A DNA stretch of 64,000 bases from Macrostomum lignano (Eukaryota), in contig NIVC01000530.1 in NCBI GenBank assembly GCA_002269645.1, forward strand, positions 434,001 through 498,000, given 5' to 3'. A program made the translations under genes and the position numbers. Shown here piece by piece: positions 39,601-57,600 of the stretch (position 1 is the first letter of the stretch; the number at the start of each line of letters is the position of its first letter). Below the pieces are notes generated by a model. It ran no database searches, had not been told where the DNA came from, and saw only the letters and a program-made list of their open reading frames with translations.

Positions 39601-42600
39601 TCAACGTTTAAACTTCCTAAACAGCGGGTGCCGCTCCTGCAACCGCTTGGCGGCCGACTGTCCCGAGCGGAACTCGGTGTACACGGTCTCGTCCGCGCCG
39701 GACAGGCTGGCCATTGTGGCCGAGCGGCGCTGGAATGCGGGCGCCGATTGGACTTTTTTCATTGCGCCGCCGCCGGACGAAGCCGTCTGGCCGGGCTCCT
39801 CCTCGTCGCGAGCGTCCGACTCGGAGGTGGCCAGCACCTGCTGGAGCAGCTGCAGCTGCGACTCCTTGGTTGACAGGCCGAGGCCCTCCTCGGACTCCAT
39901 GCCGGGCAGCCTGGTGACCACTTTGAATGCGTAGCCCTGGGCGGGAGGGAGCGGCGGTAAGGTGCTGCAAACAAATCGTCACTAATCGATGGAATTCCAC
40001 ATCAACAAATCGTCACTCGTCGATAGAATTCCCCACTCAACAAATCGTCACTCATCGATAGAATTCCCCATCAACAAATCGTCACTAATCGATGGAATTG
40101 AATTCCCCCTCAACAAATCGTCACTAATAGATGGAATTCCCCATTGACAAATCGTCACTAATAGATGGAATTCCCCCTCAACAAATCGTCACTAATAGAT
40201 GGAATTCCCCCTCAACAAACCGTCACTAATCGATGGAATTCCACATCAACAAATCGTCACTAATCGATGGAATTGAATTCCCCCTCAACAAATCGTCACT
40301 AATAGATGGAATTCCCCCTCAACAAATCGTCACTAATAGATGGAATTCCCCCTCAACAAATCGTCACTAATAGATGGAATTCCCCCTCAACAAATCGTCA
40401 CTAATAGATGGAATTCCCCCTCAACAAACCGTCACTAATCGATGGAATTCCACATCAACAAATTGTCACTAATAGATAGAATTCCCCCTCAACAAATCGT
40501 CACTAATCGATGGAATTCCACATCAACAAATCGTCACTAATCGATGGAATTGAATTCCCCCTCAACAAATCGTCACTAATAGATGGAATTCCCCCTCAAC
40601 AAATCGTCACTAATAGATGGAATTCCCCCTCAACAAACCGTCACTAATCGATGGAATTGAATTCCCCCTCAACAAATCGTCACTAATAGATAGAATTCCC
40701 CCTCAACAAATCGTCACTAATAGATGGAATTCCCCATTGACAAATCGTGACTAATAGATGGAATTCCCCCTCAACAAATCGTCACTAATAGATGGAATTC
40801 CCCCTCAACAAACCGTCACTAATCGATGGAATTCCACATCAACAAATCGTCACTAATCGATGGAATTGAATTCCCCCTCAACAAATCGTCACTAATAGAT
40901 GGAATTCCCCCTCAACAAACCGTCACTAATCGATGGAATTCCACATCAACAAATCGTCACTAATCGATGGAATTCCCCATTGATAAGTCGTCACTAATAG
41001 ATGGAATTCCCCATTGATAAGTCGTCACTAATAGATGAAATTCCCCATCAACAAATCGTCACTAATAGATGGAATTCCAAATATCGGTCTGAAACGAACC
41101 TGATTAACCAGAAACCGCTGCCTCTTCTCGGCAAAGTACATCTCAGCCGTGTCCTGCGACACCAAGCTATAATAGTACGCGTTGTACTCGTCGCCCGGCC
41201 CGGTGCCGCGCTTGGCCCGAAGAATCCGGCCAAGACGCTGGGCCTCCTGGCGCCGGGAGCCGCCGTGACTGGTGATCTGGATCAGCACGTTGGCCTCAGG
41301 CAAATCGAAGCTATTATCCGCCACCTTGGATACGAAAATCGTATTCACTTGGGGATTGTTTTGAAAGTTTTTCAACACGTACATTCGCTCAGTTTGAGAA
41401 GTCGGCCCGTACAAATACGGCTTATTCAAAGCGTTGGCGTAGTACTTCAGAGCGAACACGTTGTCAGAGAATACGATGATTTTATCTTCGCGTCTAGCGT
41501 GATAGTTAATTAGAAACTGACAGACGCGAAACTTATTGGGATTCATCTGATACAACAGTGTACGCCTAGCCCAGGATTTCTGGCTGCAATATTCCCGATA
41601 AAACTCTGGCGTCATTGGGCACCAGACCTCGGCGCATTGAACCCTGGCAATGTAGCCACCGCGCTGCAACTCTAACCAATTAGCCTCGTACAGCTTCGGT
41701 CCAATTAGAAAGTTCAAATCCGCGATTTTGTCATCCTCGCGTACTAAAGTGGCTGTCAGGCCCAGCTTGCAGTGCGAGCGTACTATGGTTAGCACTCGCC
41801 GAAACATCTTGGCCGGGATTGTGTGCACCTCGTCTAGCACCATTAGGCCCCATTCTTGGTCGCGAAGCCAGGACATTACCTATGGGTGGTAAGGAGATTG
41901 TAAGAATTCAATATATTCTAATTATAAAGCCAATAGTTGTAAAGCCTGTTACTAGTGCATAGTGCAATATACCGGAAATGAGATAGAACAGTGGCTTTTT
42001 AAACAATTGATATTGGGAATAATTAAATAACCGGAAGTGGATTATTCGCAGTTGGTTAAAGGAACTGGAAATGAGTTAGAAGCAGTTTACTAACCGGAAG
42101 TGAAGATATTAGCAGTTTATTAACCGGAAGAGAAAATATAAGCAGTTTACTAACCGGAACTGGAGAAATTAGCAGTTTATGAAACGGAAGTGGATTATTA
42201 TCTTTTTATTGACCGAAAGTGGATTATTAGCAGGTTATTGACCGGAAGTGGGTTAGTAGCTATTTATAAACCGGAAGTAGATTATTAGCTGTTTATTAAC
42301 CGGAAGTGGGTTAGTAGCTATTTATTAACCGGAAGTAGATTATTAGCTGTTTATTAACCGAAAGTCGATTATTAGCTGTTTATTAACCGGAAGTAGATTA
42401 TTAGCTGTTTATTAACCGGAAGTGGATTATTAGCTGTTTATTAACCGAAAGTAGATTATTAGCTGTTTATTAACCGGAAGTGGGTTAGTAGCTATTTATA
42501 AACCGGAAGTAGATTATTAGCTGTTTATTAACCGGAAGTGGGTTAGTAGCTATTTATTAACTGGAAGTAGATTATTAGCTGTTTATTAACCGGAAGTAGA

Positions 42601-45600
42601 TTATTAGCTGTTTATTAACCGGAAGTGGGTTAGTAGCTATTTATTAACCGGAAGTGGGTTAGTAGCTATTTAACCGGAAGTGGGTTAGAAGCTATTTATT
42701 AACCGGAAGTGGGTTAGTAGCTATTTATTAACCGGAAGTAGGTTAGTAACTATTTATAACCCGGAAGTGGATTATTAGCTGTTTATTAACCGGAAGTGGG
42801 TCCTCAAGTGGGTTACTGGTGGCTTGATGAACTGCAAGCTAGTAGTAGGGCGAATTATGATACTGCCGCACTAGCACTGGCGAGATAGGCGGCAATGCAA
42901 ATGTATAGGGAAAAATACACTGCGGAGATATGAGCCCTATCTCTGTGCATTGGGGACGGCTAAGCACTGCAGAGATATGAGCTCTATCTCTGTGCATTGG
43001 GGACGGCTAAGCACTGCAGAGATATGAGCTCTATCTCTGTGCATTGGGGACGGCTAAGCACTGCAGAGATATGAGCTCTATCTCTGTGCATTGGGGACGG
43101 CTAAGCACTGCAGAGATATGAGCTCTATCTCTGTGCATTGGGGACGGCTAAGCACTGCAGAGATATGAGCTCTATCTCTGTGCATTGGGGACGGCTAAGC
43201 ACTGCGGAGATAGAGGCGATTCATGATACTGCCGCACTAGCGCTGGCGAGATAGGCGGCAAAAAGGATATAGGAAAAATACACTGCGGAGAGGATCCTAT
43301 CTCTGTGCATTGGGAACGGCTAAACATTGCAGAGATAAGAGGGGTGGCCAATCTCTGTGCTCTGTGTTAGGGTAAGGTTATAAAGTTTTACAACTGCACA
43401 GAGGACGGCTGGTGTTGCTTACCTGGATAAGGGGACGGGGGGATACACTAATTACAGCCAGTGGCCTCTATAACGGTAAAGTAATTATTACCTGAGCATG
43501 GCTGGATGTTCATATACGATATGATAAGGAGAGGGCATGCATGTACAAATTACTATATAAGCAGCCACGCAAGTACAAATAAACAAATAGACAAAAACAA
43601 ATTGTATAAAAGGATTTTTAAAAACCTTACTACTTCTAAAAAACAACTCTTTCTCTTTCAAAATGAAAACTTTTAAAAGTTGTCATAGAGACCTCTATGA
43701 GGTCTGTATAAGCTGCGAAGTGTGCCTGCTTGGAGGCGTGTCCCCAAGACACCACGAGAATGAGAACTGTCTGGTCTCATGCTGGTTGGCATGCGACCAG
43801 TGCGGCACCGTCGAAGCTCTGCAGGAGGGAAAAATTCCAGCATATCATCGAGGACACAAGATCGTCAGCGATGACAAGAAAAAGCAAGAAAGTAACCGCT
43901 GGAAAGTAATCCGCGCCATCAAAAAGAGCAACGAGAGAGAAAAGAAGAGCCAGCAGAAAAAGGGAGCCAGCAGGAGTCTGCTATCAGCTCACTTGAGTCA
44001 AGTAATTGACTCTACATTGAAGAGGATGAGGCCAAGCGGGTCTTCAGCAGCTGCAGAATTTGAAGTTGAGCTGTCTGCTGGAGTCGAGGCTGCTGGAGTC
44101 GAGGCTGCTGGAGTCGAGGCCGCTGGAGTCGAGGCTGCTGGAGTCGAGGCTGCTGGAGTCGAGGCTGCTGGAGTCGAGGCCGCTGGAGTCGAGGCTGCTG
44201 GAGTCGAGGCTGCTGGAGTCGAGGCTGCTGCTGTCATAAACTTCATAGAGGAAGATGTCCTGGATCAGTTCCTCAGGGAATTCAACGCTGGTCAGCAGCA
44301 GCAGCAGCAGCAACCTGTCTCTTCGGTTCCGGTGATTGCTGGAAAACAACTTCATCTAATTGAAGACGACCACGAAATGGAAATCCTAGAAGAGGAGGGC
44401 AGCGACAATGAGTCGCATAATGCAATTGTGCCACCTGCAGCTCCAGCCGCCCCAGCTGCTCTGGCCGCCCCAGCTGCTCTGGCCGCCCCAGCTGCTCTGG
44501 CCGCCCCAGCTGCTCTGGCCGCCCCAGCTGCTCTGGCCGCCCCAGCTGCTCCAGCCGCCCCAGCTGCTCTGGCCGCCCCAGCTGCTCCAGCCGCCCCAGC
44601 TGCTCTGGCCGCCCCAGCTGCTCTGGCCGCCCCAGCTGCTCTGTCCGCCCCAGCTGCTCTGTCCGCCCCAGCTGCTCTGGCCGCCCCAGCTGCTCTGGCC
44701 GCCCCAGCTGCTCTGGCCGCCCCAGCTGCTCTGGCCGCCCCAGCTGCTCTGGCTGCCCCAGCTGCTCCAGCCGCCCCAGCTGCTCTGGCCGCCCCAGCTG
44801 CTCCAGCCGCCCCAGCTGCTCTGGCCGCCCCAGCTGCTCTGGCTGCCCCAGCTGCTCCAGCCGCCCCAGCTGCAGCCTCTACAATTCCAGCTTCTCAATC
44901 CGAAACTCCACCCGTGCCAGCTGGAGTTGCCTTCTTTCTGCCTCCTGTCGGCGGGGCTGGGTACGAGGTAACGATTTTCGAAAATCGTATTAGAATTGTG
45001 CCGCTGTGACTAAGCAATTTTTGTACTTTTTTGCTTTCTGTGTGGAGTGAGAAATCTACCCATTTATTGCAATTATTGCTAAAACTTTATTTCAACTAGC
45101 TTTTTAAAGTTGAAAGTAGGTACATTAATTAATGATTTGATCATCTCATAACTCTGTATTCGCTTCTAGGAATCTTGCTTATAAGTTTTCAGTTTTCATT
45201 TCCAAATTAGTTTTAAAAAAAGCTCGTAGCTCGTAGTGGCAACCAATATTTTTTTGGTATCCGAGGTAAAAAAAAATTATTTGAAAAGTAGGTGAAACAT
45301 TATACAGTTGAATTTAACAAATTAAAATCAACATAACATACTTTCAATAAATTGGTGATGGTTTCGTATGCTTGGTGCGATTGATTAGGTATAATTTTCT
45401 TTCTACTGCTTTGATGCGGTGTTTCCTCATTCTTTAATTATTGAACTTTTCAGCTATATTTCTGCTTCTAAACTCTCGTCTGTATTTGTAATTCATTGTT
45501 CCATGCATTGTTTATTGACTATGATTGCACCATGTGAATTCGATATTTTTTTAAAATATATATATATAATGTCAGCATTTTTCCACTCGGTGATTGGTTT

Positions 45601-48600
45601 GTTAATTAACTATTGGCTTCATTTTGCATTTTTTACCGATTGAGTCTGCGTAGGAGGCAAATAGAAACGAACTTTTACGAATAGGGATCAATAGAATATG
45701 CATGCAGAGAGCTAGCTTAAGGGAGAACCAAAAAAATATAACCAGCATCTACTAGCTTGTAAGTGTGGATATTGTACCAGTATTGCAGCAATAAAGACTT
45801 ACGAAAAAAGATTTCAAATATTCACTCCCAGTTGCTTATGACACTCAGTTGCAGCCAGTAAACACTGTCAGCTTTTAACTGCTTGCCTTTTCTATGGTTG
45901 AGCACTCCTGGATGGAGCAGGAGAATGACCACTCATGGATGGAGAATGACCACTCATGGATGGAGAATGACCACTCATGGATGGAGAATGACCACTCATG
46001 GATGGAGAATGGCCACTCGTGGATGGAGGATGACCACTCGTGGATCGAGTATGACCACCCTTGGGTGGACCATGACGTCAGCAGCGAGTCAGCAGCCAGC
46101 AGCGAGTCGGCAGCCAGCAGCGAGTCGGCAGCCAGCAGCGAGTCAGCAGCCAGCAGCGAGTCAGCAGCCAGCAGCGAGTCAGCAGCCAGCAGCGAGTCAG
46201 CAGCCAGCAGCGAGTCAGCAGCCAACAGCGAGTCGGTGACTGATGCACACCAAGGTAAGTGCCTTTATTTATCCTTTTCAACTTACTTAAAAATTTTCTT
46301 ATCAATGCGATGTATATTATGCAGTCTAAAATTTTAGTCCAAAGAATGGGAGAAGGGGAGATAAAAGACTTTATACCGGTAGGGTTGTACATGTATGCTT
46401 GGGTACAGACGTTTAGTTTAGTATCTTTGATATTTGAAACTATAGGCAGCAAAAAACAAAAATATTATCCTAAAACCACAAACCAGGTTCAACAGTCAGC
46501 TTCAGCAGAGTTGCCCAAGCCTATGATCAATCACTGGAAATACTGAGGCTCAGATCGAGTCACCCAGACACGCTTCCGTCAGAATTTTTTGTCCAAGCTG
46601 GAGACAAAATTATTGAGGCAGTTCAGCAAAGAATTTCAAGACATCATTACAAAGTTCAGCTAAAGGTGAATATTCGAATGGTCCGAATAAGAGATGGGGA
46701 GATGCTTGCCGAAGAGGACAGATGGATAAGCTGTAAAATGCAGGCCCTAGACCTAGGTGGTGAAGCAGGCCGTTTAAACAACTGGTTGATTGAGCAGGAG
46801 CAGGAGTTGGAGAGGATCTGTAGTATGATTAATACGAACGGCAGTGGCTGGACAATTAAACAAATTAATTTTCTAGACATCAACCTTGCCAGGTACAATC
46901 CAATTCGATTTCGCCAGGGCAGAGCCGTTAGATTCAATCTTCCTGCCAGTTTGAAGAACAAAAAGGCTGTTATCAATCCACCGAGCACAGGCAAAGACTG
47001 TTTCCTGTACGCCTGTCTCGCTGCACTGCACAGCGCCGATCCGAAAGTTCAGAAATCGCCCAACAGAATATCCTCTTACGATGAATGGTTGCGTGAGCTG
47101 GACTTTGCAGAAATCTCCATGCCAGTGAGTGTCGCTGATATCGATCGCGTCGAGTCTAACAATCCAGGAATTTGCATTTCTGCGTTCTCTTGGCAGCAGG
47201 GCAGTGTGACTCTTCTCCGTCGCCGCAAGCATGAGTCAGATGACCGAAGACACCTCATGCTTTTGCTAGTTAAAGACAGCTACGGATCGGAGCACTGGTG
47301 TGCAATTACTAATTTTGACAGGTTAATGAACAGTCGTAATGGTCCCGCCATGAGGAAGTGGTGCACGAAATGTTTAACATCATTTTATAGCAACGAGAGG
47401 CTTCAAGAGCACAGGAACGAATGCAGCATTACTGCAGAAAATCCTGTCAAAGAAACGCTTCCAGTTCCAGGACAGAATGAAATAAAGTTCCGAAACTGTC
47501 AAAACACTGTCAGTCCACCATTCGTTGCCTATGCCGACCTGGAAGCCATTTTGCGAGCGAACACAGACCCTGCTAACCTGATCTCAAAGCATGAACCATG
47601 TGCAGCAGCTTTTCTTGCAGTGCCTCGTGAAGGCATGACAGGACCTCCGCTTAGGCCAGAAGGAGACATGTACAAGGTCTTTTGCAATGCGGACCCTGAT
47701 GAGTGTATCCTTGGTTTTCTCAAATCTCTTGAAAGCCTGGCTCAGGATATATTTCACTGGAACCAGAAGCATAGCCACCAGCCGGCTGACCGATCATCCG
47801 CGACCGTCATGGATGATTTCAATTCTGCTGAGGTATGTCACTACTGCAAGAAGAACTTTAAAAGTTCTACAGATAAACATTTTGACCACGATCATTTAAA
47901 TGGACAGTACAAAGGTGCAGCATGTCAAGAATGCAACCTGCGAGCACAGCTCCGACGCCGGTTTCTGCCCCTGGTTTTTCACAACTTAGGCGGCTACGAC
48001 CTTCATCTTCTACTTTCCACTGCGCTTGGGAGCATGAAAAATTGGAAACTTAGTGTTGTTCCGCAATCATCCGAGCGATACTTGTCACTAAGGGCGGAAT
48101 TCCCTGTTGCAAGTTACGTAAAGAACGGAAAAGTTGTGCCAATCATGTTTACAATTCAGTTCATCGACTCGCTCTGCTTTTTGAAGGGAAGTTTGTCCAA
48201 TTTGTTTGCTAATCTTCCCGAAGCTGAATGCAAGCTGACAATGCAAATGCTTGAGTCAAGACCACATCTTTCAAGAGAGCTACTTCGAAAAAAAGGGATT
48301 TTCCCATATGATTACCTCACAGGATTTGAGATTCTCGAGCAGTCGGTTTTGCCGCCTAAAGATGCTTTTTTTAATCGACTTTCCGATCGGGGAATTTCCG
48401 ACGACGACTACAATAGAGCAAGAGCGGCATGGGCGGCATTTCAATGCAAAAGTTTGAAGGATTATATGCTCGCCTATCTTGAAATGGATGTAAGGCAGCT
48501 GGCTGACATTTTCGAGACATTCCGACAGGCCAGTCTGAAAGAGGACGGATTGGATCCGGTACACTACTTTACTACTCCTGGTTTGTCTTACGACTCAGCT

Positions 48601-51600
48601 CTAAAGTCGACTGGAGTGGTTCTAGAGCAGCTGACTGATGCTGACATGTATCATCTGTTTGAGAAGGGAATACGAGGAGGCATGTCCTTCATTAATGTGC
48701 ATTGCGTCAAAGGTAATAATCCTAGCTTGCCAGGTTATGATGATCAGCAAGAGAGTGTAAGCCTCATGCGATCGATATGAACAACTTGTATGGCTTTGCC
48801 CTGTCGCTTCCGCTTCCATGCAGGGAATTCAGGTGGGTACCGGAACAGGAAATCCAGTTCTGGGACTCCAATCGGTTTCTGTCACTCAATCCAGAAGCCG
48901 AGATCGCCTACCTTGTTCAACTCGATCTAGAATACCCAGCTGAGATTCACGATTCGACTCAGGAGTTACCGTTTGCACCTGAAAAATCAAAACCACAGCC
49001 AGATCAATTCTCGCCGTACATGGCCGAACTATGGAAAGAGATTGCTGAACAGCGAACTGGCAATGCTGAAGCTAAGTTTCAAGCAACGGAGAAGCTTCTA
49101 CTCACCTGTACCGACAAGGATTCTTACGTAGTTCACAGCACCGTTTTAAGATTTTACCTGCAACACGGAATGCGGATCAAGTGCGTCAAAAAATGATTTC
49201 GTTCAAGCAGGAAAATATTTTCGCGCCGTACATTGCCAGCAACAATGAAAAAAGAGCTTTGGCAACTTCCGAGTTTGCTAAGGATTTTTACAAATTGAAA
49301 AACAATTCTCTCTTTGGAAAAACTATGGAGAACGTTCGAAAAAGATGCGATGTTCGAATTTGCACTAACCAGACTCAAGCAGAAACTTGCGCCTCTCGAC
49401 CAAACTGTGCCGCATTCTCGATTATCAATGAGTCGTTGAGCATTTTTCAGCTCAAAAAAGATAAAGTCACGCTTGACAAGGCCATTTTCGTTGGCCAGGC
49501 AGTTCTCGATCTCTCTAAGATGGCCATGTACAGCCTACTATATGACAGGCTCCGACCGCTGTTCTGTCATTCAGACGGTTCCAGAGACATGATGCTTTGC
49601 GGAGGTGATACTGACTCATTTTTTCTAGCTTTCAAGAATCATGATTTAACATCGGAGGTAATCCCGAAGCTTAGAGAGGAAAAAATACTTGACACATCCA
49701 ACTATTCTCGAGACCATCCGCATTTCTCTGAAGAGTTAAAAGGAAAGCTGGGCTGCGTTAAAGATGAATCTGCTGGTGGAATTTACCAGGAGTGGATTCT
49801 TTTGCGTCCAAAACTTTATTCGTTTCTCCCTGCCGAGAATTCGAGTGCAAAGATCAAGAAAACTGCCAAAGGCGTGAAGCAGTCAGTAGTAAGACAGCAA
49901 ATTTCGCATGCGAACTATGTCGACGCGTTCGAGTCCAAGCAAGAGCAGATGGTTGCCATGACAGCGATTGTTTCCAAGAAACACGAAATCTTCACGTCGG
50001 TCATGGAGAAAAGAAGCCTATCGGTGTGGGAGGATAAGCGAGTGTGGCTTAGCAGTAATCGAAGCCTGCCCTACGGACACTATGCGCTGACGCCCGCATC
50101 CCACGATCAGCTGAAGCGCATCCGACTGGTCTAGTGCGGGTGTTTAACAGACTGTTTAGTACTTTTTCTTGCTTTTAGAGTTGTTTAAATTGCCAAATTC
50201 TGTTTTAAATGTAGTGACTTGCATGTAGTAACTTTTACAAATTTGTATGCTTGGCTAATTGCGCTAGATTTAGCTGTCAATTTGTTTTTGCGGCGTGAAA
50301 TATTGATATCAATTTAAGTTTTACTTTTTATAAAGCTGTGTGGCAAGTGCGCTCATACAATATTAATTCATTTTTGTTTGCTTTGTGTACTACTTGTTTA
50401 AAATGTGTTTTTGGTTTTTATCTGACACAAATTGTTCCTGTAAATTCAATCAGCGTTTTAATCATATTTTCTCTATCACTTTTCTATTTCTCTTCTCTCG
50501 GTGCACATCGTTTGTTATAACGATGGTAGTATTGTTTACTTTCGGATTTGATATGCGTTTTGCGATACTTTTGGTGATGGGCTAAATACGTTTTTGAAGT
50601 GTTCCATAGCTGTCTGCCTGGGAAAATGAATGTAAAGAATACCAAGTTTATCCTTTTATTCACTTTTCACTAATCATTGAAATATTTGCGGCAAATTGCT
50701 TGACTTGACTTTATTTTTATTCAATGGAAAGAACTACATTGAGTAGACGCATGCTATCGGTATGCAACTGATTCAAGGACCGAGCTCCACTGAGAACAAA
50801 AGAGCCGCTGTGAAAAAGCAGACATTTACAAAAGTTTAAATTGAAAATTAAAGCAGAAAAGGATTCTGGTTCATATTCGGCGTTTGGGATAATTGATTTT
50901 AACATTAATAAGGAAAGTGCGGAATGAACTGGGAGCTGTCCATGAGCAGTAATAGTTTTAATTCGAACACAAATTGTTTGATGAGGCAGCAGTTGAGCCG
51001 GCACTCTCCGATGCAGCATAGCCACGAAGCGACGGGCAGCCCTTTTGGCGTCTGCGTGGGTCTTGGCACCGCAGATGCTCAGTTGCCCAGTAGGGTAGAG
51101 TAGGAGAGTCACTCTGGGAATCCGCATCCGCTTGATGAGCACCCGGGGCCAGACGGGCCGGTAGATCACATGAGCCATGCTGAGAGCCAGTTCCCGTAGA
51201 GGCAGCTGAGCGCCCCTGCCACCATCCAGTCTCAGATCTACTCCGCCAACCAGATTGGTCACTCTTAGGGCTGTAGCTGGTGGGCTCATTTCGATCGTCA
51301 ACTTCTTCACCAAATCTGCTTCTGCCAACTTTACTGCTCGTGTGCCACGGACACTGCTCGCTTCTTAAGTTGATGCAGAACTTTGGCTTAAGCCAACTGT
51401 AGTGCAGCAACGAATTTCTCACTGCACAGCCAGTATCTGAATCTTCAGTCGAGGGTGCTCCCAAATCTTCTAGGTTATAAACCTGTCTTCCAAGCAGCTC
51501 AGTCAGAAAAATCGACTTCCTTTCCCCATTTGACCAGATCGGACCACTGGCAATGCTCAGAATGTCTTCCGCCAGTTCCATGTACGGACGGGTTCCATCA

Positions 51601-54600
51601 TTCCACTTAAACTGGTGCAGACTCTTAGATAGCTGTCTGTAGTAAACTCGCATGTCAGGTGAGACTCTCTCCCATGGATACGGAGGTGCGTACACATGGT
51701 GAGCAATGTGGTAGCTCCCCGCTCTGATTTGAACAACTGCCAACTCCTTCACAACAAATTTTTTGCTTGTGCTGTTGCACGGGAATCCTTGGAAGTCAAT
51801 GTAGTTCATGATGCAGCTTTCCTTCGAAAATTTCGGAGTCAGTCCACCTTCTTATATACTTTTCTGGCAGGCAATTTCAGCCAGGCTGTGTTGCTCCCGT
51901 ACCCCTTGACTAGACTCTCCTGTTCTTTCTCCAGTTCACCCCTCTGCTGGTTGCCATTTTCTTCTTAACTGATTTACCAACAGCGGAAAGCGGAACATTA
52001 AGCTTTTTCTGCTGCAGAAAATCGATGAACTCGTTCCACCCAACTGGTTCACGCTCACATGGCGAATCCCTCACTGTGTGCTGAATCAAGTCCAGTATGT
52101 TTGAGGAAGGGATTGACGTGCCTGCGATTTCCACCTCCCCGTTTTCACAAACTCGAATCAGCTCTGGATTGGTGGACAGGATCGTCCACAGACTGCGAGC
52201 CCTGGTTTTGAATTTCTGTGGCACCGACTTGCTGATCTTCTCTTCCCAGGTGCTTATCTGGGGTGTCTCTGTTTTCATCAACTTGGCTTCAGTATTGCGT
52301 GCTCCTTCTTTTCCAGCGTGCTTGCGCTTGGCCAGCAAACTTTGCATTGCACTTTGGTACATGGCGGTTTTCACATCTTCTGGACAATCCTCGGCATACA
52401 AGATGTCATCGCATTTCTTCTGAGCCTGCTTCAAGTCAGCTTCAGTGGTAGTCTCATTTGGCTTCAAATTCTGCATCAACATCTCATACTCTGCTTTAGG
52501 AATCAGAACCATTTCTGAAAATTTGTTCATTTTGCTTCTTCTTCTTTACCAGCTTAAGCAGAATCGGGAGTATTTTGATGAAGCCAGCCTTCAACAAGTC
52601 TGTCTTTCTTCTTTTGTGAGTAATTTTTCGAATTATCTCTTTTGACTTTGCAAGAACAGCTTTTTCATCGAGCGAAAACGATAGATTGTTTTGTAAGAGA
52701 TTATGGCAGGCCTCGACAAGAAAATAACGCACTTCTTTTGGACAATTTTTTATCAACAGCCGCTTGAAGCGCACGGTATATTTAGGTGACGCAAGAACCG
52801 CAAAAAACTTGCATATGAATCAAGCACTTCCATTGCGATGAAAACAATAGCTGATAAAAACAAGCTTCACTTTCTTAAGCAAATACAAGATGGGGTCGCT
52901 GGTTGGGCAGAATTCTGGCCCGCACTCGCAGCTCATCGGGAGTTGATGGTGAAAGTCTAGGAACAGGTAGGCTCCCCTGCCCTGCGCGGTCACGTGCTTG
53001 AACACTGACAGCAGAAAGCCGGGCTTCTCTGTAAAGCACTGCCTGCCCAGTGCTGCAATCTGCAGCTGGTCTCGGGGTTTTTCAAGATAGCTAAGTACAT
53101 TACATTCAAGCTCATTGTTCGCGACTCTTTTCCCTTGAAAAATATATTCTGAGTCAGCATCACCAAAAAGCACGGCAAGTGATGTGCGATTCCTGTGAAA
53201 AAATTTCGCATTGAAGCAGAGTTTGAAGTTTCCTCTATTAAGTCATCGAAAACAACCAGGTCATTGGGCCTAAGTGCTGCCTCGATGTTGGTGGGAAATC
53301 CCTGGCGCAGCTGCACACCTAGGCTGTTCAGTTCTGCATGGCCTGCCTGTGAGATCCCATAGTACCACAGAACTCTGCCAGGCTTCACATCAAACATGAC
53401 GTCTCTGTACTGGATCAGGTGTTCGACAAAGGTTGTTTTTCCTGCATTGGTGGGCCCGCAGACAATCATGCAGCTTCCCTGCCTGAGGCGGATATCGTAG
53501 CAAACTTGCTTTTCTCCCATGTTTAATGCATAAATATTAGAAATCACGGACATCTTTTTCTTAAGTTGGCTTCAAACCTCTGTAAGATTCTATCATTCAA
53601 ATGATTTTTCATTAGCATGCAAATGCTTCAAAATCCCCTCAAATGACCGATTGAACAGAAACTTTTGATAAGCAAAATAGATGCAAAACATTCCGCATTT
53701 ATTAGAGTTAGCACATTGAACTCTGTTTATATTGCTTCGGAGCCAAAAGCCAGTTGTTTTAATCTCTCGAAACAAATTATAAACCAAAGATAAAATTTCA
53801 GGTTCCCAGCCGAGGGAGTTGAACAACTCAATGCGATTTCCTTGCCCAACATAGCACACCACCCAGTGACCAAATGAGCCATTGTGCTGAAGTAGGACAA
53901 AAACAAACTTGTTTTCAAAGGAAATTGATGATCTAAATTTTCTTTTTACATTCAAGGGCAGAGAATTTTTATAGCGCAAATGTAAAGTAACTATGAGAAA
54001 TTTTTGGTAAGGCAAAAATTTTCTGGCGAGATTAAGTAGTTGAATTGCATCCATGTCAATTAAGAGGAATAGTCCAGCAAAAGCTCTCGTGCTTGGTGAC
54101 CTCAATCAGCGAGTCATACAGGCACATAGCAATCAGGGACACCGCTTCATTCAGAGCCTGTTGGAAGCGAATCTCCAGCCGCAGGTTGCCCTCCTTCTGT
54201 CCGTACCACAGAGCCGCTCCCTCGGGTGTGAGATCGAATGCAAACACCGTGGTGTTGTTGGAGAAGAGCTGGTAGGGGATCCACGGACCGAGTTTGTGTG
54301 GCTTGCAGATTGACAGCTTTTCAGGTAGTGCAAGTATTCTCTTACAAGGAATTGTTTTCAGGTGTGAAGGCGCCGTGGCACACGGTTTCCCCACCTTTCT
54401 TTAGAGCCAATCGGCTAAGGTTGAAGCTCTGGAACTGGAACGGGCTCGCGTGATGATGACCGTTGAATGCTCGGTGGCTCACGAAGGCCAGCATGATGAA
54501 CTTCGGCAATTTTCCATGAGTGAATCCTTCAATGTTTTTGACTGAATACCCTGGGTAGGATGAAGTTCTGCATTTCAGTTCGCTCGATGGGATACAGTGC

Positions 54601-57600
54601 ATTTTGGTTTGTCAGCCCCTGCTCATGGGCCAGGCTGATGTGGGGCATCACTTTGACTCGGCGAAGATGCAGAATGCTGTGAGAGATTTCCATTCGGTAT
54701 GCCGCGTTGTTTGCATTCGGGGTTCTGATGGCAAAGGCCCCATCGCTGGGGACCAGTTTGATGTGCAGGTGCAGATTGCTTAGCAGAAACACTGGGCACT
54801 GGAAAACATCGCTGAAGAGCGGCCCCGCATACTCCATCCATTGGGATTCCCTGTGGCTCTCCGTGTGCTCTTCAGCTGCCGAGTTCGGCTCCAGGAAGCC
54901 AGCAGGGTAAAGTTTTAGTTGCTGGGCATCGGATGAGCTCATTAGTGCTTTGAAGTACGCATGGTAGGGATAGAGCTGGTCTCCACCAGACACCACTCGC
55001 TGGTTAATGCTCACATTACATCTGAGAAGGCTGTAGACAGAACAAAATTTTCTGGGTGCACGTCACTGTCTCTGCGCTCGGTGATGATGCCATCTCCATC
55101 TCGAACATCCTCCTCAGCAAACCCCCATCCAGTCTCACAAGGCGGCAGCGAATATAAAGAAAAGAATTAAGCAGATCTGTATTCATCGGCAGATTGTGGC
55201 AGTCAAATTCAATGGGAGAGTTTGCAACAATGGAATTAACTGGGTGAATATCAACATAAGTAGCTTTTTCAATGCAGGTTTGTAGAACGGGCGTCTTAAA
55301 TAAATCAAGTCTGGGATTGAATCCGTAAGCCATGTCTATGACAGAGAGTCGAGCACGCGTTTCACAGTTTTCTTTGCTGACTTTTGCTTTCGCTTTCCTC
55401 CGCCTGCTCTATTCTTCTTTGCTTTCGTCTTCCTATTCTTAAGCTTTTTCCCACTAGCCTTGCTCGACCTCTTACTGCGATTTCCACCAGTTGCCTTTCG
55501 GGTGCCCTTCTTTTCTTCAATCGTTTCGGACTTGCTTCAGTATTTCTTTTGCGCCTGACGTTGCTAAGCGTCGAGGCTGATGATGATGATATAGCCGCTG
55601 GCGGAGGCTGGTATGTCATGATCCCTGGGAAGCTCCCACAGCCATAGAGTGCAGGCTTTTCGTGTCCTGTCCTCACCCCGAATATTGCTGGATTAGCTGC
55701 TGGTAGTTCATTGAATGCGTTTCTCCTGAATTTGAACTGTAAGCAGAACAGGGCTGTGAGTCTGTGCAATCAGTGGGCAACCATAGATGTCCGCAGCTGA
55801 ACTCGAATGCTGTGAAGAAGACTGATTCGTTGAATCGGGAAGAATATTGTTTTCTTAAATATTTTTGTTTGATAGTTGCCCCATTCAATGCCAGCTTTCA
55901 TTCCAACTGTTCTCAACAAGGAGCTCCAGTTGCAATTAGTTGACTCAACGATACTGCAGTGCACATTGATTAAGCTGGTGCGCGGGCAGCCAATGCAATG
56001 CTCGGATACGCGGCTCCCTGGCTGGATTTTCACAGCCTGGTTTCCAAATCCCAGCCAATGCAGAATTTTACTAGATGGAAGAAACAGCTCTGCTCTCGCA
56101 GTGTTGTTGTGCACCACAGTTCGTGAGTTGCGGATTTCGAACTTCATACCAAATTCCCTGTTGCCACTACGCCCCATCAGGCCGGACTCATCAGCCTCCA
56201 TCTCAGACTCCCTGTCACTCATTGCATCAAAGAACAGCGAATCAGAGTTGGCCAGCAGCTCATTCAGGCGCCACCAGCTCCTCCACTCTAGCAAAGCGTC
56301 CGGGTTGAAGAACCAGGGCCTCATGCTCTCTTCCATCTGAGACAGTGAAGCAGTAAGGCTCGTCAACATTGAACCATGCAGCAGGCAGATGGATTTCAGC
56401 CAGACCTGCCTCATAGTCCACATTTCGATCCAAGTAAATAGGTGAAGGCAGGTAAAAATTAAAGTCACTAGGAGTACCTTCAGCATGCTCACTGTTAATC
56501 AAAATAGTTCGCATTATAATCATAAACTACATGATGAGGGCTGTGCCAAAGCTAAACCTTTCTTAAGTCTTTTCATCCACCCAGCCAGTCGAGTCGTAGC
56601 CCGCCCATTTCACCAGATAGCGAATTTTTCCCTTCCGCTTCTCCGTTTTCAGGATCTTCTCAATCACATACAGCCGCTGTGAGTCCGGGACAGCCTGCAG
56701 CTCGTGCTCATGGAAGAGTCCTCGAATCTCTTGCCCCCGCATGTCTTTAATCTTGTACATGTAGGGATAATGTTTTGGGGCTCTGCTCACCACGGTGTAC
56801 ACTTCCTCACTCCAGCTCGCTTTGTATCCCTTTTTGAATATCCGTGGAGCATTGGAAATTCTCACTGACTGGTTTTCAGCGAACTTAGGCTTCTTTAATT
56901 TTTCTAGAGTCTCGACTGCTTTTCCATCGTACAGGTTCATCCACACTTCAGATTCATTCTCTTTGCAGACACTAGTGGGTGCCATTTTGATGCTTCTGTG
57001 GTAGGTATTGTTGTAGGATTTTACCAGCTTAGGCAGCACATCAAGCCAGTGCAGTGTGCTCTTGTAGGTGAAGTAGCGCCACATTCTACTTTTCAGAGTT
57101 CGATTCCATCGCTCAATGACAGCTGCCTTCTGCTCGCTGTTAGTTGGGAAAGCCAGAATCCCTCTGTCAATGCAGTATTGACGGAAAGTGGAGTTGATAA
57201 ATTCCTTCCCCTGATCTGTGCGAACTGTGCGTGGCTGGCGCTTTGAACTTCTCAGTATGCTCTCGAATGCTGACTTCACTTCTGCAGCAGATTTTTTTTC
57301 AGTGCCTTGGCCCAAGCACATTTTGAGAGCACGTCAATGCATGTGGAATATATTTGTAGCCTTTATTATGCTTTGCGAATGGAATCATTTCCACTAAGTC
57401 AAGTTCCCACTGATCATCGATTGCGCGCACTATGATTGGGGCCCTTGGATATCGCCTCCTAGCTGGCTTGTGCAGAGTGTGCACTGGCTGCTCGCTGAGC
57501 CACTGCTCAATGCTCTTTGCAGATATTCGATCACCTCTTTGCCTCACTTCATGCAGCAACTTTGAGGCACAAGAAAAACTAGCCGGTTGCTCAGGTTTCA

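Follow-up and report, generated by a model that had tools for sequence, protein, structure and literature searches.

The question raised by this locus is why a Polinton of the flatworm Macrostomum lignano should carry a gene for a TATA-binding protein (TBP), and what such a protein might do for the element. The window analyzed here is a stretch of 64,000 nucleotides (GCA_002269645.1, contig NIVC01000530.1, forward-strand positions 434,001 to 498,000), and all coordinates below refer to it unless another locus is named. The TBP open reading frame (ORF) occupies positions 50717-51289 on the minus strand and sits within a 16.7-kb Polinton (42841-59512) that is bounded by terminal inverted repeats (TIRs) with AGTAGT at the ends and flanked by a target duplication of 6 bp, CAAGCT. 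From the data presented below, we lean toward the view that the element TBP serves the promoters of late genes and relies on TFIIB and RNA polymerase II (Pol II) of the host.

The ORF runs from ATG to TAA with no internal stop and encodes 190 amino acids arranged as two lobes without an N-terminal extension. It matches Pfam PF00352 in two stretches (E = 7.9e-25), and 35 of its 36 sequence matches in the PDB are TBPs. An AlphaFold2 model built from a 16-sequence alignment (pLDDT 91.8, pTM 0.82) reproduces the two-lobe order of strands and helices, and its best Foldseek matches are all TBPs from archaea, human and plants, with template modeling (TM) scores of 0.82-0.84. Models of viral TBP-like proteins (BFVD) superpose less well (TM up to 0.74). 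By profile match and predicted structure, the element protein is a member of the TBP family, with two tandem lobes and a saddle fold. A search of the genome returned 152 matches (150 of 231 candidates were scored), of which 25 show no difference along the full 190 residues; among the top 97, 95 are free of stops. These matches are not copy numbers, as evident by the fact that the host TBP gene (G000:C713, L049) and the host TRF2-like gene (G000:C3090, L050), whose core domains are intronless, each turn up three times in the assembly. For nine subfamily representatives (36 pairs), hand-picked from 45 fetched loci of the window's own family, mean dN/mean dS is 0.152 for TBP codons 1-110 and 0.143 for the remainder, where dS is saturated in 15 pairs. 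The gene is maintained under purifying selection. An initial annotation, made from the sequence alone, had described an intact ORF of ~190 residues with two TBP lobes inside the TIRs and had looked to structure prediction, profile searches and sister copies for confirmation, and each of these expectations was borne out.

Related genes were found in other Polintons. A second family from the same genome (family 2, the window element belonging to family 1) encodes a TBP 36-38% identical to that of the window, placed in the same order of protease, ATPase, small ORFs, DEDD-like ORF and TBP; a PC4-like gene is present too, and the top 26 matches to the family 2 TBP are without stops. Family 3 (L163 581-1117, L164 410-1003) has a much more degenerate, shortened TBP-like frame that gives a Pfam match (8.3e-5) in one of two copies tested and is open in 40 of the top 42 matches. 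Its model (pLDDT 72.6) has TBPs as its 44 best fold matches, but at TM scores of only ~0.45 and with TBPs present in the input alignment. There is no ATG ahead of the first strand of this frame, which an upstream ORF overlaps; a non-AUG start, a splice or a frameshift is possible. L163 and L164 had been chosen as TBP-less controls and were dropped for this purpose, since both hold the degenerate ORF. In a fourth family (L162; C2158:1-20500), no TBP is detectable over 20.5 kb, a weak match having been rejected as a short tandem repeat. This TBP-less family encodes a dUTPase, and four TATAAG sites lie in a short tandem duplication (L162 608-1477, 1513-1758). Finally, a metagenomic contig (L093) from an unrelated Polinton encodes an ATPase, two small ORFs, a TBP near the same slot, an integrase with chromodomain, and genes in the capsid slots.

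A tree was computed with IQ-TREE (C20 PMSF, 179 columns) from 64 rows hand-picked from about 250 proteins, with family 3 left out. Families 1 and 2, together with unnamed relatives, supply the 11 proteins of one clade (99/92), which groups with 17 compact ‘group-A’ TBPs (L093 included) and two more proteins (97/88), while canonical eukaryotic TBP and TRF2 fall separately (99/91). Group A amounts to about 33 unannotated compact TBPs of 151-200 amino acids on small contigs. A tree constrained to unite the clade with host TBP is disfavored (approximately unbiased, AU, test p = 0.038); one that unites it with TRF2 is not rejected (AU p = 0.127), and the free tree does not group the clade with TRF2. 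Long branches weaken this placement, and an Asn-to-Thr change shared by these proteins (see below) is an independent-looking mark of their kinship. As judged from sequence, the element TBP belongs to an older Polinton-associated lineage and is not a one-off capture. The captured, strongly diverged TBP of the initial annotation is diverged as described (26% identity to host TBP), but a recent capture from host TBP is disfavored. The tree also suggests a Polinton origin for about 35 group-A proteins and for P0002-4, P0009, P0014 and P0158-9. More compact divergent TBPs are found on Polinton-sized contigs (P0020, P0031, P0060 and P0119, with contigs up to 24.7 and 26.2 kb, and P0012, P0120 and P0132), and these may be additional viral TBP lineages. 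A metagenome scan for group A gave one Polinton (L093) among the best 80 of 579 loci. Of six IMG/VR scans, the five aimed at these lineages or their neighbors gave no Polinton, and the other gave 14 loci, none with a Polinton hallmark. The resulting one in 94 is not a frequency because the scan patterns mostly caught cellular TBPs. The metagenome scans gave nothing for family 2, and phage records gave no match.

The DNA-binding face is where these proteins depart from their cellular counterparts. Relative to host TBP, two of the four DNA-intercalating Phe residues are kept (F144 and F159) and Y65 stands at the second position. The initial annotation had read a Trp at the first Phe; the ungapped alignment instead puts P48 at this Phe and W47 immediately ahead of it, with the loop register uncertain by one residue. 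Among minor-groove contacts, N12, V14 and L63 are kept, while the second Asn is T112, as had been noted initially, and the second Val is T114. Both central Thr residues and the equivalent of Pro191 are changed (C73, S167 and S145). As aligned, then, the element protein is not a canonical TBP, in that it has neither all four Phe residues nor the paired minor-groove contacts and the proline. These features are shared across relatives only 30-38% identical, whose DNA faces are altered alike: F144, F159, Y65, N12, V14 and L63 are kept in 11 of 11 clade members, the second Asn is Thr in the same 11, in 16 of 17 group-A proteins and in both further proteins, and the residue after the third Phe, equivalent to Pro191, is Ser or Asn throughout the clade. 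Pro191 reportedly excludes every base other than T from position 1 of the TATA box, whose 5′ half is read by the C-lobe (available portion of PMC1636458).

On the surface expected to meet TFIIB, E140 and E142, which correspond to human E284 and E286, do not vary among the 11 clade members, although the lobe in which they reside (lobe 2) is saturated at silent sites. The human glutamates are TFIIB contacts that viral TBPs mostly lose while carrying their own TFIIB, according to the portion of PMC7221094 available. By alignment, the acidic C-lobe stirrup for TFIIB is kept in the element TBP. No Pfam match to TFIIB or an RNA polymerase was obtained among 19 ORFs scanned from the element, a set in which ORFs under 80 amino acids and broken pieces are partly covered. 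The basic patch of the N-lobe (TFIIA/Mot1/TAF1/Brf1) is retained in part in family 1 (K82, R86, R87 and R94 kept, A90 lost) and mostly lost in family 2, although the mapping is approximate.

No hexamer on the right arm's coding strand is more over-represented than CTTAAG (eight seen versus 1.2-2.1 expected), which is missing from the polymerase gene and under-represented in the host flank. Its sites precede genes, and none is listed in the TIRs. The longer box CTTAAGAA lies within 125 nucleotides of six of 11 right-arm gene starts (null mean 0.97, P = 0.00015, post hoc), at distances of 44 to 110 nucleotides. Its bearers are the genes for the integrase (box at 57670-57677, 58 nucleotides upstream), the putative minor capsid protein (56560-56567, 44 nucleotides) and putative major capsid protein (55436-55443, 110 nucleotides), the ATPase (53558-53565, 45 nucleotides before the second Met), a small ORF provisionally labeled pX-like (52872-52879, 46 nucleotides before the ATG at 52833), and TBP itself. 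The last of these (51362-51369, minus strand) is a candidate autoregulated promoter located 80 nucleotides before the TBP ATG, within the upstream ORF; every one of the 45 family-1 loci retrieved has this box, and 30 of these loci are near-identical. The canonical box TATATAAG instead stands ahead of the PC4-like gene (58818-58825), the DEDD-like ORF (51851-51858, minus strand, 49 nucleotides upstream) and a 448-residue ORF (43554-43561). In family 2 and L093, the core TAAGAA is likewise confined to the coding strand (four versus none in L031, five versus none in L161 and 10 versus none in L093), with WTAAGAA beginning in T, C-T or C-A, and CATAAGAA occurs 31-56 nucleotides ahead of three gene starts in L093. 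The initial suggestion that the protein redirects host polymerase to element promoters gains from this strand-specific, non-canonical box before structural genes and from the kept TFIIB glutamates, which together make it a plausible reading of the sequence.

Several observations count against this interpretation. The P-values of the motif are post hoc, since visual inspection of the very upstream sequences on which it was scored had led to its choice. Across three deep lineages the codons of the TBP box do not change, but neither do 39 of the 80 codons that can be compared. The distance from box to ATG varies between 44 and 110 nucleotides, and the protease and one small ORF have no box. Most boxes in family 2 begin with T and its TBP gene has a canonical TATAAAAG, while the L093 TBP gene has no box within 110 nucleotides; candidate autoregulation would hold for family 1 only. 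In the TBP-less family, TATAAG(C/T) occurs 10 times on the coding strand and never on the opposite strand, with five sites 30-97 nucleotides ahead of listed ORF starts. TATA-like boxes therefore do not need an element TBP, and a G at position 6, which we had considered as a mark of TBP-dependent genes, was dropped from consideration because it is present there too. Family 3 has also lost the proline, yet uses the canonical TATAAATA (TATAAATA/G six times), and in group A the proline is replaced by Ser, Asn or Ile in only 10 of 17 proteins and retained in five. Titles of PDB entries describe complexes of wild-type TBP with the single variants T(-30) and G(-26), and some of the departure seen in these boxes may thus be acceptable to host TBP. 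Lastly, a protein without the first Phe, either central Thr or one Asn may bind DNA weakly, as in the case of TRF2, which binds TFIIA and TFIIB yet not TATA (accessible part of PMC3142196, where the roles of the Phe residues are also described). What remains distinctive is the first base. TATA-like boxes are found in all five Polinton groups examined, with or without TBP, and the boxes of the TBP-less family all start with T (10 of 10), whereas C-starting boxes are found only in elements with a well-formed TBP, namely families 1 and 2 and L093. A C start alone thus appears to go with a well-formed element TBP, and it fits the lost proline, although three elements make few independent cases.

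The alternative that best survives these observations, although we consider it unlikely, is that host TBP reads the boxes as weak variants of TATA, and that the element TBP is an accessory without specificity of its own that boosts or stabilizes initiation at the element's promoters generally, together with the PC4-like protein, for instance when host TBP is in short supply or has been evicted. The occurrence of TATA-like boxes regardless of TBP, the mostly canonical boxes of families 2 and 3, and the PC4-like gene of families 1 and 2 are all consistent with such a role. The restriction of C-starting boxes to elements with well-formed TBPs argues against it, as does the fact that the changes on the DNA face are fixed and not scattered.

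The arrangement of the TBP gene itself offers a possible basis for timing. The DEDD/Maelstrom-like ORF (50958-51809, minus strand) extends into the TBP gene such that its tail covers TBP codons 1-110 in the +1 frame, by 323-335 nucleotides in all family-1 subfamilies that have both ORFs and by 389 nucleotides in family 2. The overlapping frame is open longer than in synonymous shuffles (P = 0.0004-0.024 for 11 loci from two independent families), yet the protein sequence of the tail shows no conservation (pN/pS 2.1). The overlapping upstream ORF may damp translation of TBP from a longer early message; high G+C content at third codon positions in the first half of the TBP gene is an alternative cause of the open frame. 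The domain label of this ORF is a lead drawn from its N-terminus (no Pfam match; Atlas Maelstrom cluster, 0.88). Its DEDD-like motif (51290-51809, minus strand) is D-x-E in family 2 but D-x-Q in family 1, whose protein may therefore be altered in catalysis, and the nearest Atlas clusters are unnamed arthropod proteins. At one locus (L054 333-1409, G000:C2930, with the same match on C2941), the DEDD-like ORF is fused in frame to TBP from about residue 44, which could reflect a mutant copy or an assembly error.

From the observed fold, selection, residue pattern, overlap, and enrichment and placement of boxes, we infer the following scheme for an early-to-late switch. Host TFIID would first transcribe the genes behind canonical TATATAAG boxes, which are the PC4-like gene, the 448-residue ORF and the DEDD-like ORF. 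Transcripts from the last of these would span TBP as well, and little TBP is proposed to be made at first because its start falls inside the DEDD-like ORF in the +1 frame. The element TBP that accumulates would next bind the non-canonical CTTAAGAA boxes, and its kept acidic stirrup would recruit host TFIIB and Pol II. As a result, the integrase, capsid and packaging genes and, in family 1, the TBP gene itself would be switched on.

The two lobes of the element TBP also differ in age. Subfamilies in both deep groups are 93-100% identical over TBP codons 1-100 and 30-90% identical after codons 111-120, and silent divergence jumps from ~0.08 to 0.6-0.85 across the lobe junction. This recurrent recombination junction corresponds to window positions of about 50930-50960 (codons 111-120). 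The near-identical block extends from the middle of TBP to the start of the integrase gene (about 92% in both sisters tested; the PC4-like gene is at 71%), whereas the polymerase proteins are merely 51-54% identical in seven of eight sisters, the eighth stretch having no polymerase match. From this difference it follows that the capsid/integrase block has spread across old polymerase arms by crossovers at the lobe junction, and that the TBPs of today are chimeric, joining a young lobe 1 to ancient alleles of lobe 2. Taken further, and more tentatively than the late-factor role itself, these data could reflect a widespread, uncatalogued animal Polinton lineage with a minimal orthogonal switch. 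A bare TBP without the proline would read C-starting YWTAAGAA on capsid, packaging and integrase genes and plug into host TFIIB and Pol II, with timing in the flatworm set by the overlapping upstream ORF and with lobes exchanged as modules between subfamilies.

A decoy for TFIIB, TFIIA, NC2 or Mot1, which the initial annotation had offered as its second possibility, fares less well than a promoter factor. Such a protein would soak up these factors or Brf1, or block host TATA promoters, and so damp host transcription or defense without activating element genes. Several DNA contacts are indeed lost while the TFIIB glutamates and part of the basic character of helix 2 (K82, R86, R87 and R94) are kept, and there is precedent in TRF2/TLF, which binds TFIIA and TFIIB though not TATA (PMC3142196, in the part available) and from which an origin of the clade is not rejected (AU p = 0.127). 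A decoy, however, has no need to keep F144, F159, Y65, N12, V14 and L63, as all 11 clade members do; moreover, the basic residues of helix 2 are mostly lost in family 2 and the C-starting box is left unexplained. We regard this possibility as doubtful, and more so than an accessory role.

Roles apart from Pol II appear more improbable still. These include DNA bending at the TIRs or in packaging or replication, and recruitment of RNA polymerase III through Brf1. The same glutamate contacts Brf1 and Brf2 (PMC7221094, in the part available), and in recombinants lobe 2 travels with the polymerase arm. Nevertheless, CTTAAG sites stand ahead of genes and none is listed in the TIRs, and an AATAAA directly after the TBP stop (50710-50715, minus strand), a candidate poly(A) signal, fits Pol II; such a signal is found within 70 nucleotides of the stop in six of nine family-1 representatives and in none of four family-2 loci. 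A recently captured host gene carried as a functionless passenger is most improbable of all, as nothing but strong divergence speaks for it, and it conflicts with a dN/dS of about 0.15, which refutes it barring errors in the pairwise estimates, with 95 of the top 97 genome matches being stop-free, with a TBP in the same slot of family 2 at 38% identity and near the same slot in L093, and with the disfavored grouping with host TBP.

The late-factor reading can be compared with known systems. Eukaryotic TBP shares the two-lobe saddle and the equivalents of F288/F305, N163 and E284/E286 with the element TBP, which differs by its low identity, changed DNA face, missing N-terminal tail and residence in a mobile element. 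TRF2/TLF (TBPL1) is likewise a paralogue of TBP that retains the TFIIB glutamates and whose DNA face is altered, but is 24% identical and carries other substitutions, the host TRF2 keeping one of four Phe residues compared with two plus a Tyr in the element TBP. The TBP-like proteins of Nucleocytoviricota (African swine fever virus B263R, mimivirus, phycodnavirus) are virus-encoded TBP folds that are also accompanied by viral RNA polymerase. The element TBP is nearer to cellular TBP (24-27%) than to these proteins (7-21%), and, unlike the systems in which TBPs mostly lose the TFIIB glutamates and bring a viral TFIIB (PMC7221094, in part), the 17-kb element gives no such Pfam match. The TBP mimics of beta- and gammaherpesviruses, such as ORF24 of Kaposi's sarcoma-associated herpesvirus, act at viral late promoters with host Pol II, as is proposed here, but ORF24 is large and multi-domain, needs viral partners and is predicted to be incompatible with TFIIB (available part of PMC12529657), whereas the element TBP is a bare 190 amino acids with an intact stirrup; the homology compared here is that of the fold. 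The element TBP is a member of neither the herpesviral system nor the TBP/TFIIB pairs of nucleocytoplasmic large DNA viruses.

Viral TBPs are thus already known, and a Polinton TBP is near-undescribed. The initial annotation's belief that none had been described mostly holds; one figure legend (Fig. 5 of Starrett 2021, PMC8502044, and of its preprint) labels a TBP in an unnamed MELD virus with an adintovirus-like polymerase B, in a section mostly on non-animal datasets. The text of that paper, as far as available, contains no analysis of TBP and no use of the word ‘promoter’, and the available supplement text is without TBP, TATA or Macrostomum. No further description was found in the literature, although subscription papers, Repbase notes and figures may mention one. 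The portions available of the Polinton texts PMC11161782, 10.64898/2026.06.19.733378, PMC8097293, PMC10748475, PMC11131425 and PMC12220804 have no relevant mention of TBP, TATA or PC4, and ‘polinton’ is absent from the available part of PMC7221094.

The remainder of the element is that of a Polinton, with TIRs ending in AGT, a 6-bp target duplication, a protein-primed DNA polymerase B (pPolB), a retroviral-type integrase, an ATPase and an adenain protease. The left TIR (42841-43142) and right TIR (59208-59512) include perfect arms of 303 nucleotides (42840-43142 and 59208-59510) and are flanked by the target duplications at 42835-42840 and 59513-59518. The TIRs contain 47-bp tandem units (42918-43341, 59171-59432) in unequal copy number, and the left end is one AGT unit short of the right. 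On the plus strand are the repeat-rich 448-residue ORF (43663-45009), which lies behind canonical TATA boxes, and pPolB with an HNH-like insert in three ORF pieces (46678-50134; PF03175, PF02945). The minus strand encodes a conserved Polinton ORF, ‘PW’, of 206 amino acids (51910-52530; CTTAAGC 28 nucleotides upstream, counterparts in L093 and L163, no Pfam match); a piece of the packaging ATPase (52990-53553), identified by Walker A and by tblastn to other Polintons, with weak Pfam P-loop matches; the adenain-type maturation protease (53593-54054; PF00770, 1.1e-4; no box within 125 nucleotides); and the integrase with chromodomain in two pieces (56563-57619; PF00665, PF00385). The Pfam matches of pPolB and integrase are below the curated cut-off. 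The capsid slots hold conserved ORFs at the expected places without Pfam matches, so that the putative major capsid protein (54342-55333, in pieces, also matched by tblastn between families) and what is presumably the minor capsid protein (55770-56523, in pieces) are labeled by synteny. More generally, the major and minor capsid, PX, PW and PZ labels are provisional ones, based largely on synteny and with no library match.

A PC4/p15 domain (PF02229) is encoded by family 1 (57971-58714, minus strand; 5.1e-8, followed by an acidic tail) and by family 2 (L031 1864-2301, plus strand). By its sequence, this coactivator or single-stranded DNA-binding domain is a second basal-transcription or single-stranded DNA-binding homolog in both families. 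Several core genes of the window copy are broken, and contigs from four studies share indels relative to the window at these places (12 listed, 24 more), so the breaks may be assembly errors. The stretch is present in 20 of 24 listed sequencing runs, none recorded as RNA, and contigs of four runs cover all 30 bins, including intergenic ones, with no joints. Loose read ends at 51279 were considered as a spliced leader, which was ruled out when the ends were seen by eye to match a sister subfamily. An exon of the host XPB/ERCC3 gene for the TFIIH helicase (41028-41876, minus strand) lies ~1 kb beyond the left TIR, and its proximity is probably a chance of insertion.

How Polintons express their genes, and whether a viral program persists in them, is a largely open field. 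A dedicated TBP with a matching box provides a concrete early/late scheme that can be tested in an animal in which RNA interference is available, and it supports a virus-like life cycle for these elements. The pair is proposed as a natural case of altered specificity between TBP and TATA box, in which the TBP lobes tolerate mix-and-match exchange. If the scheme is true, the element protein would be the smallest known viral TBP that works with host TFIIB.

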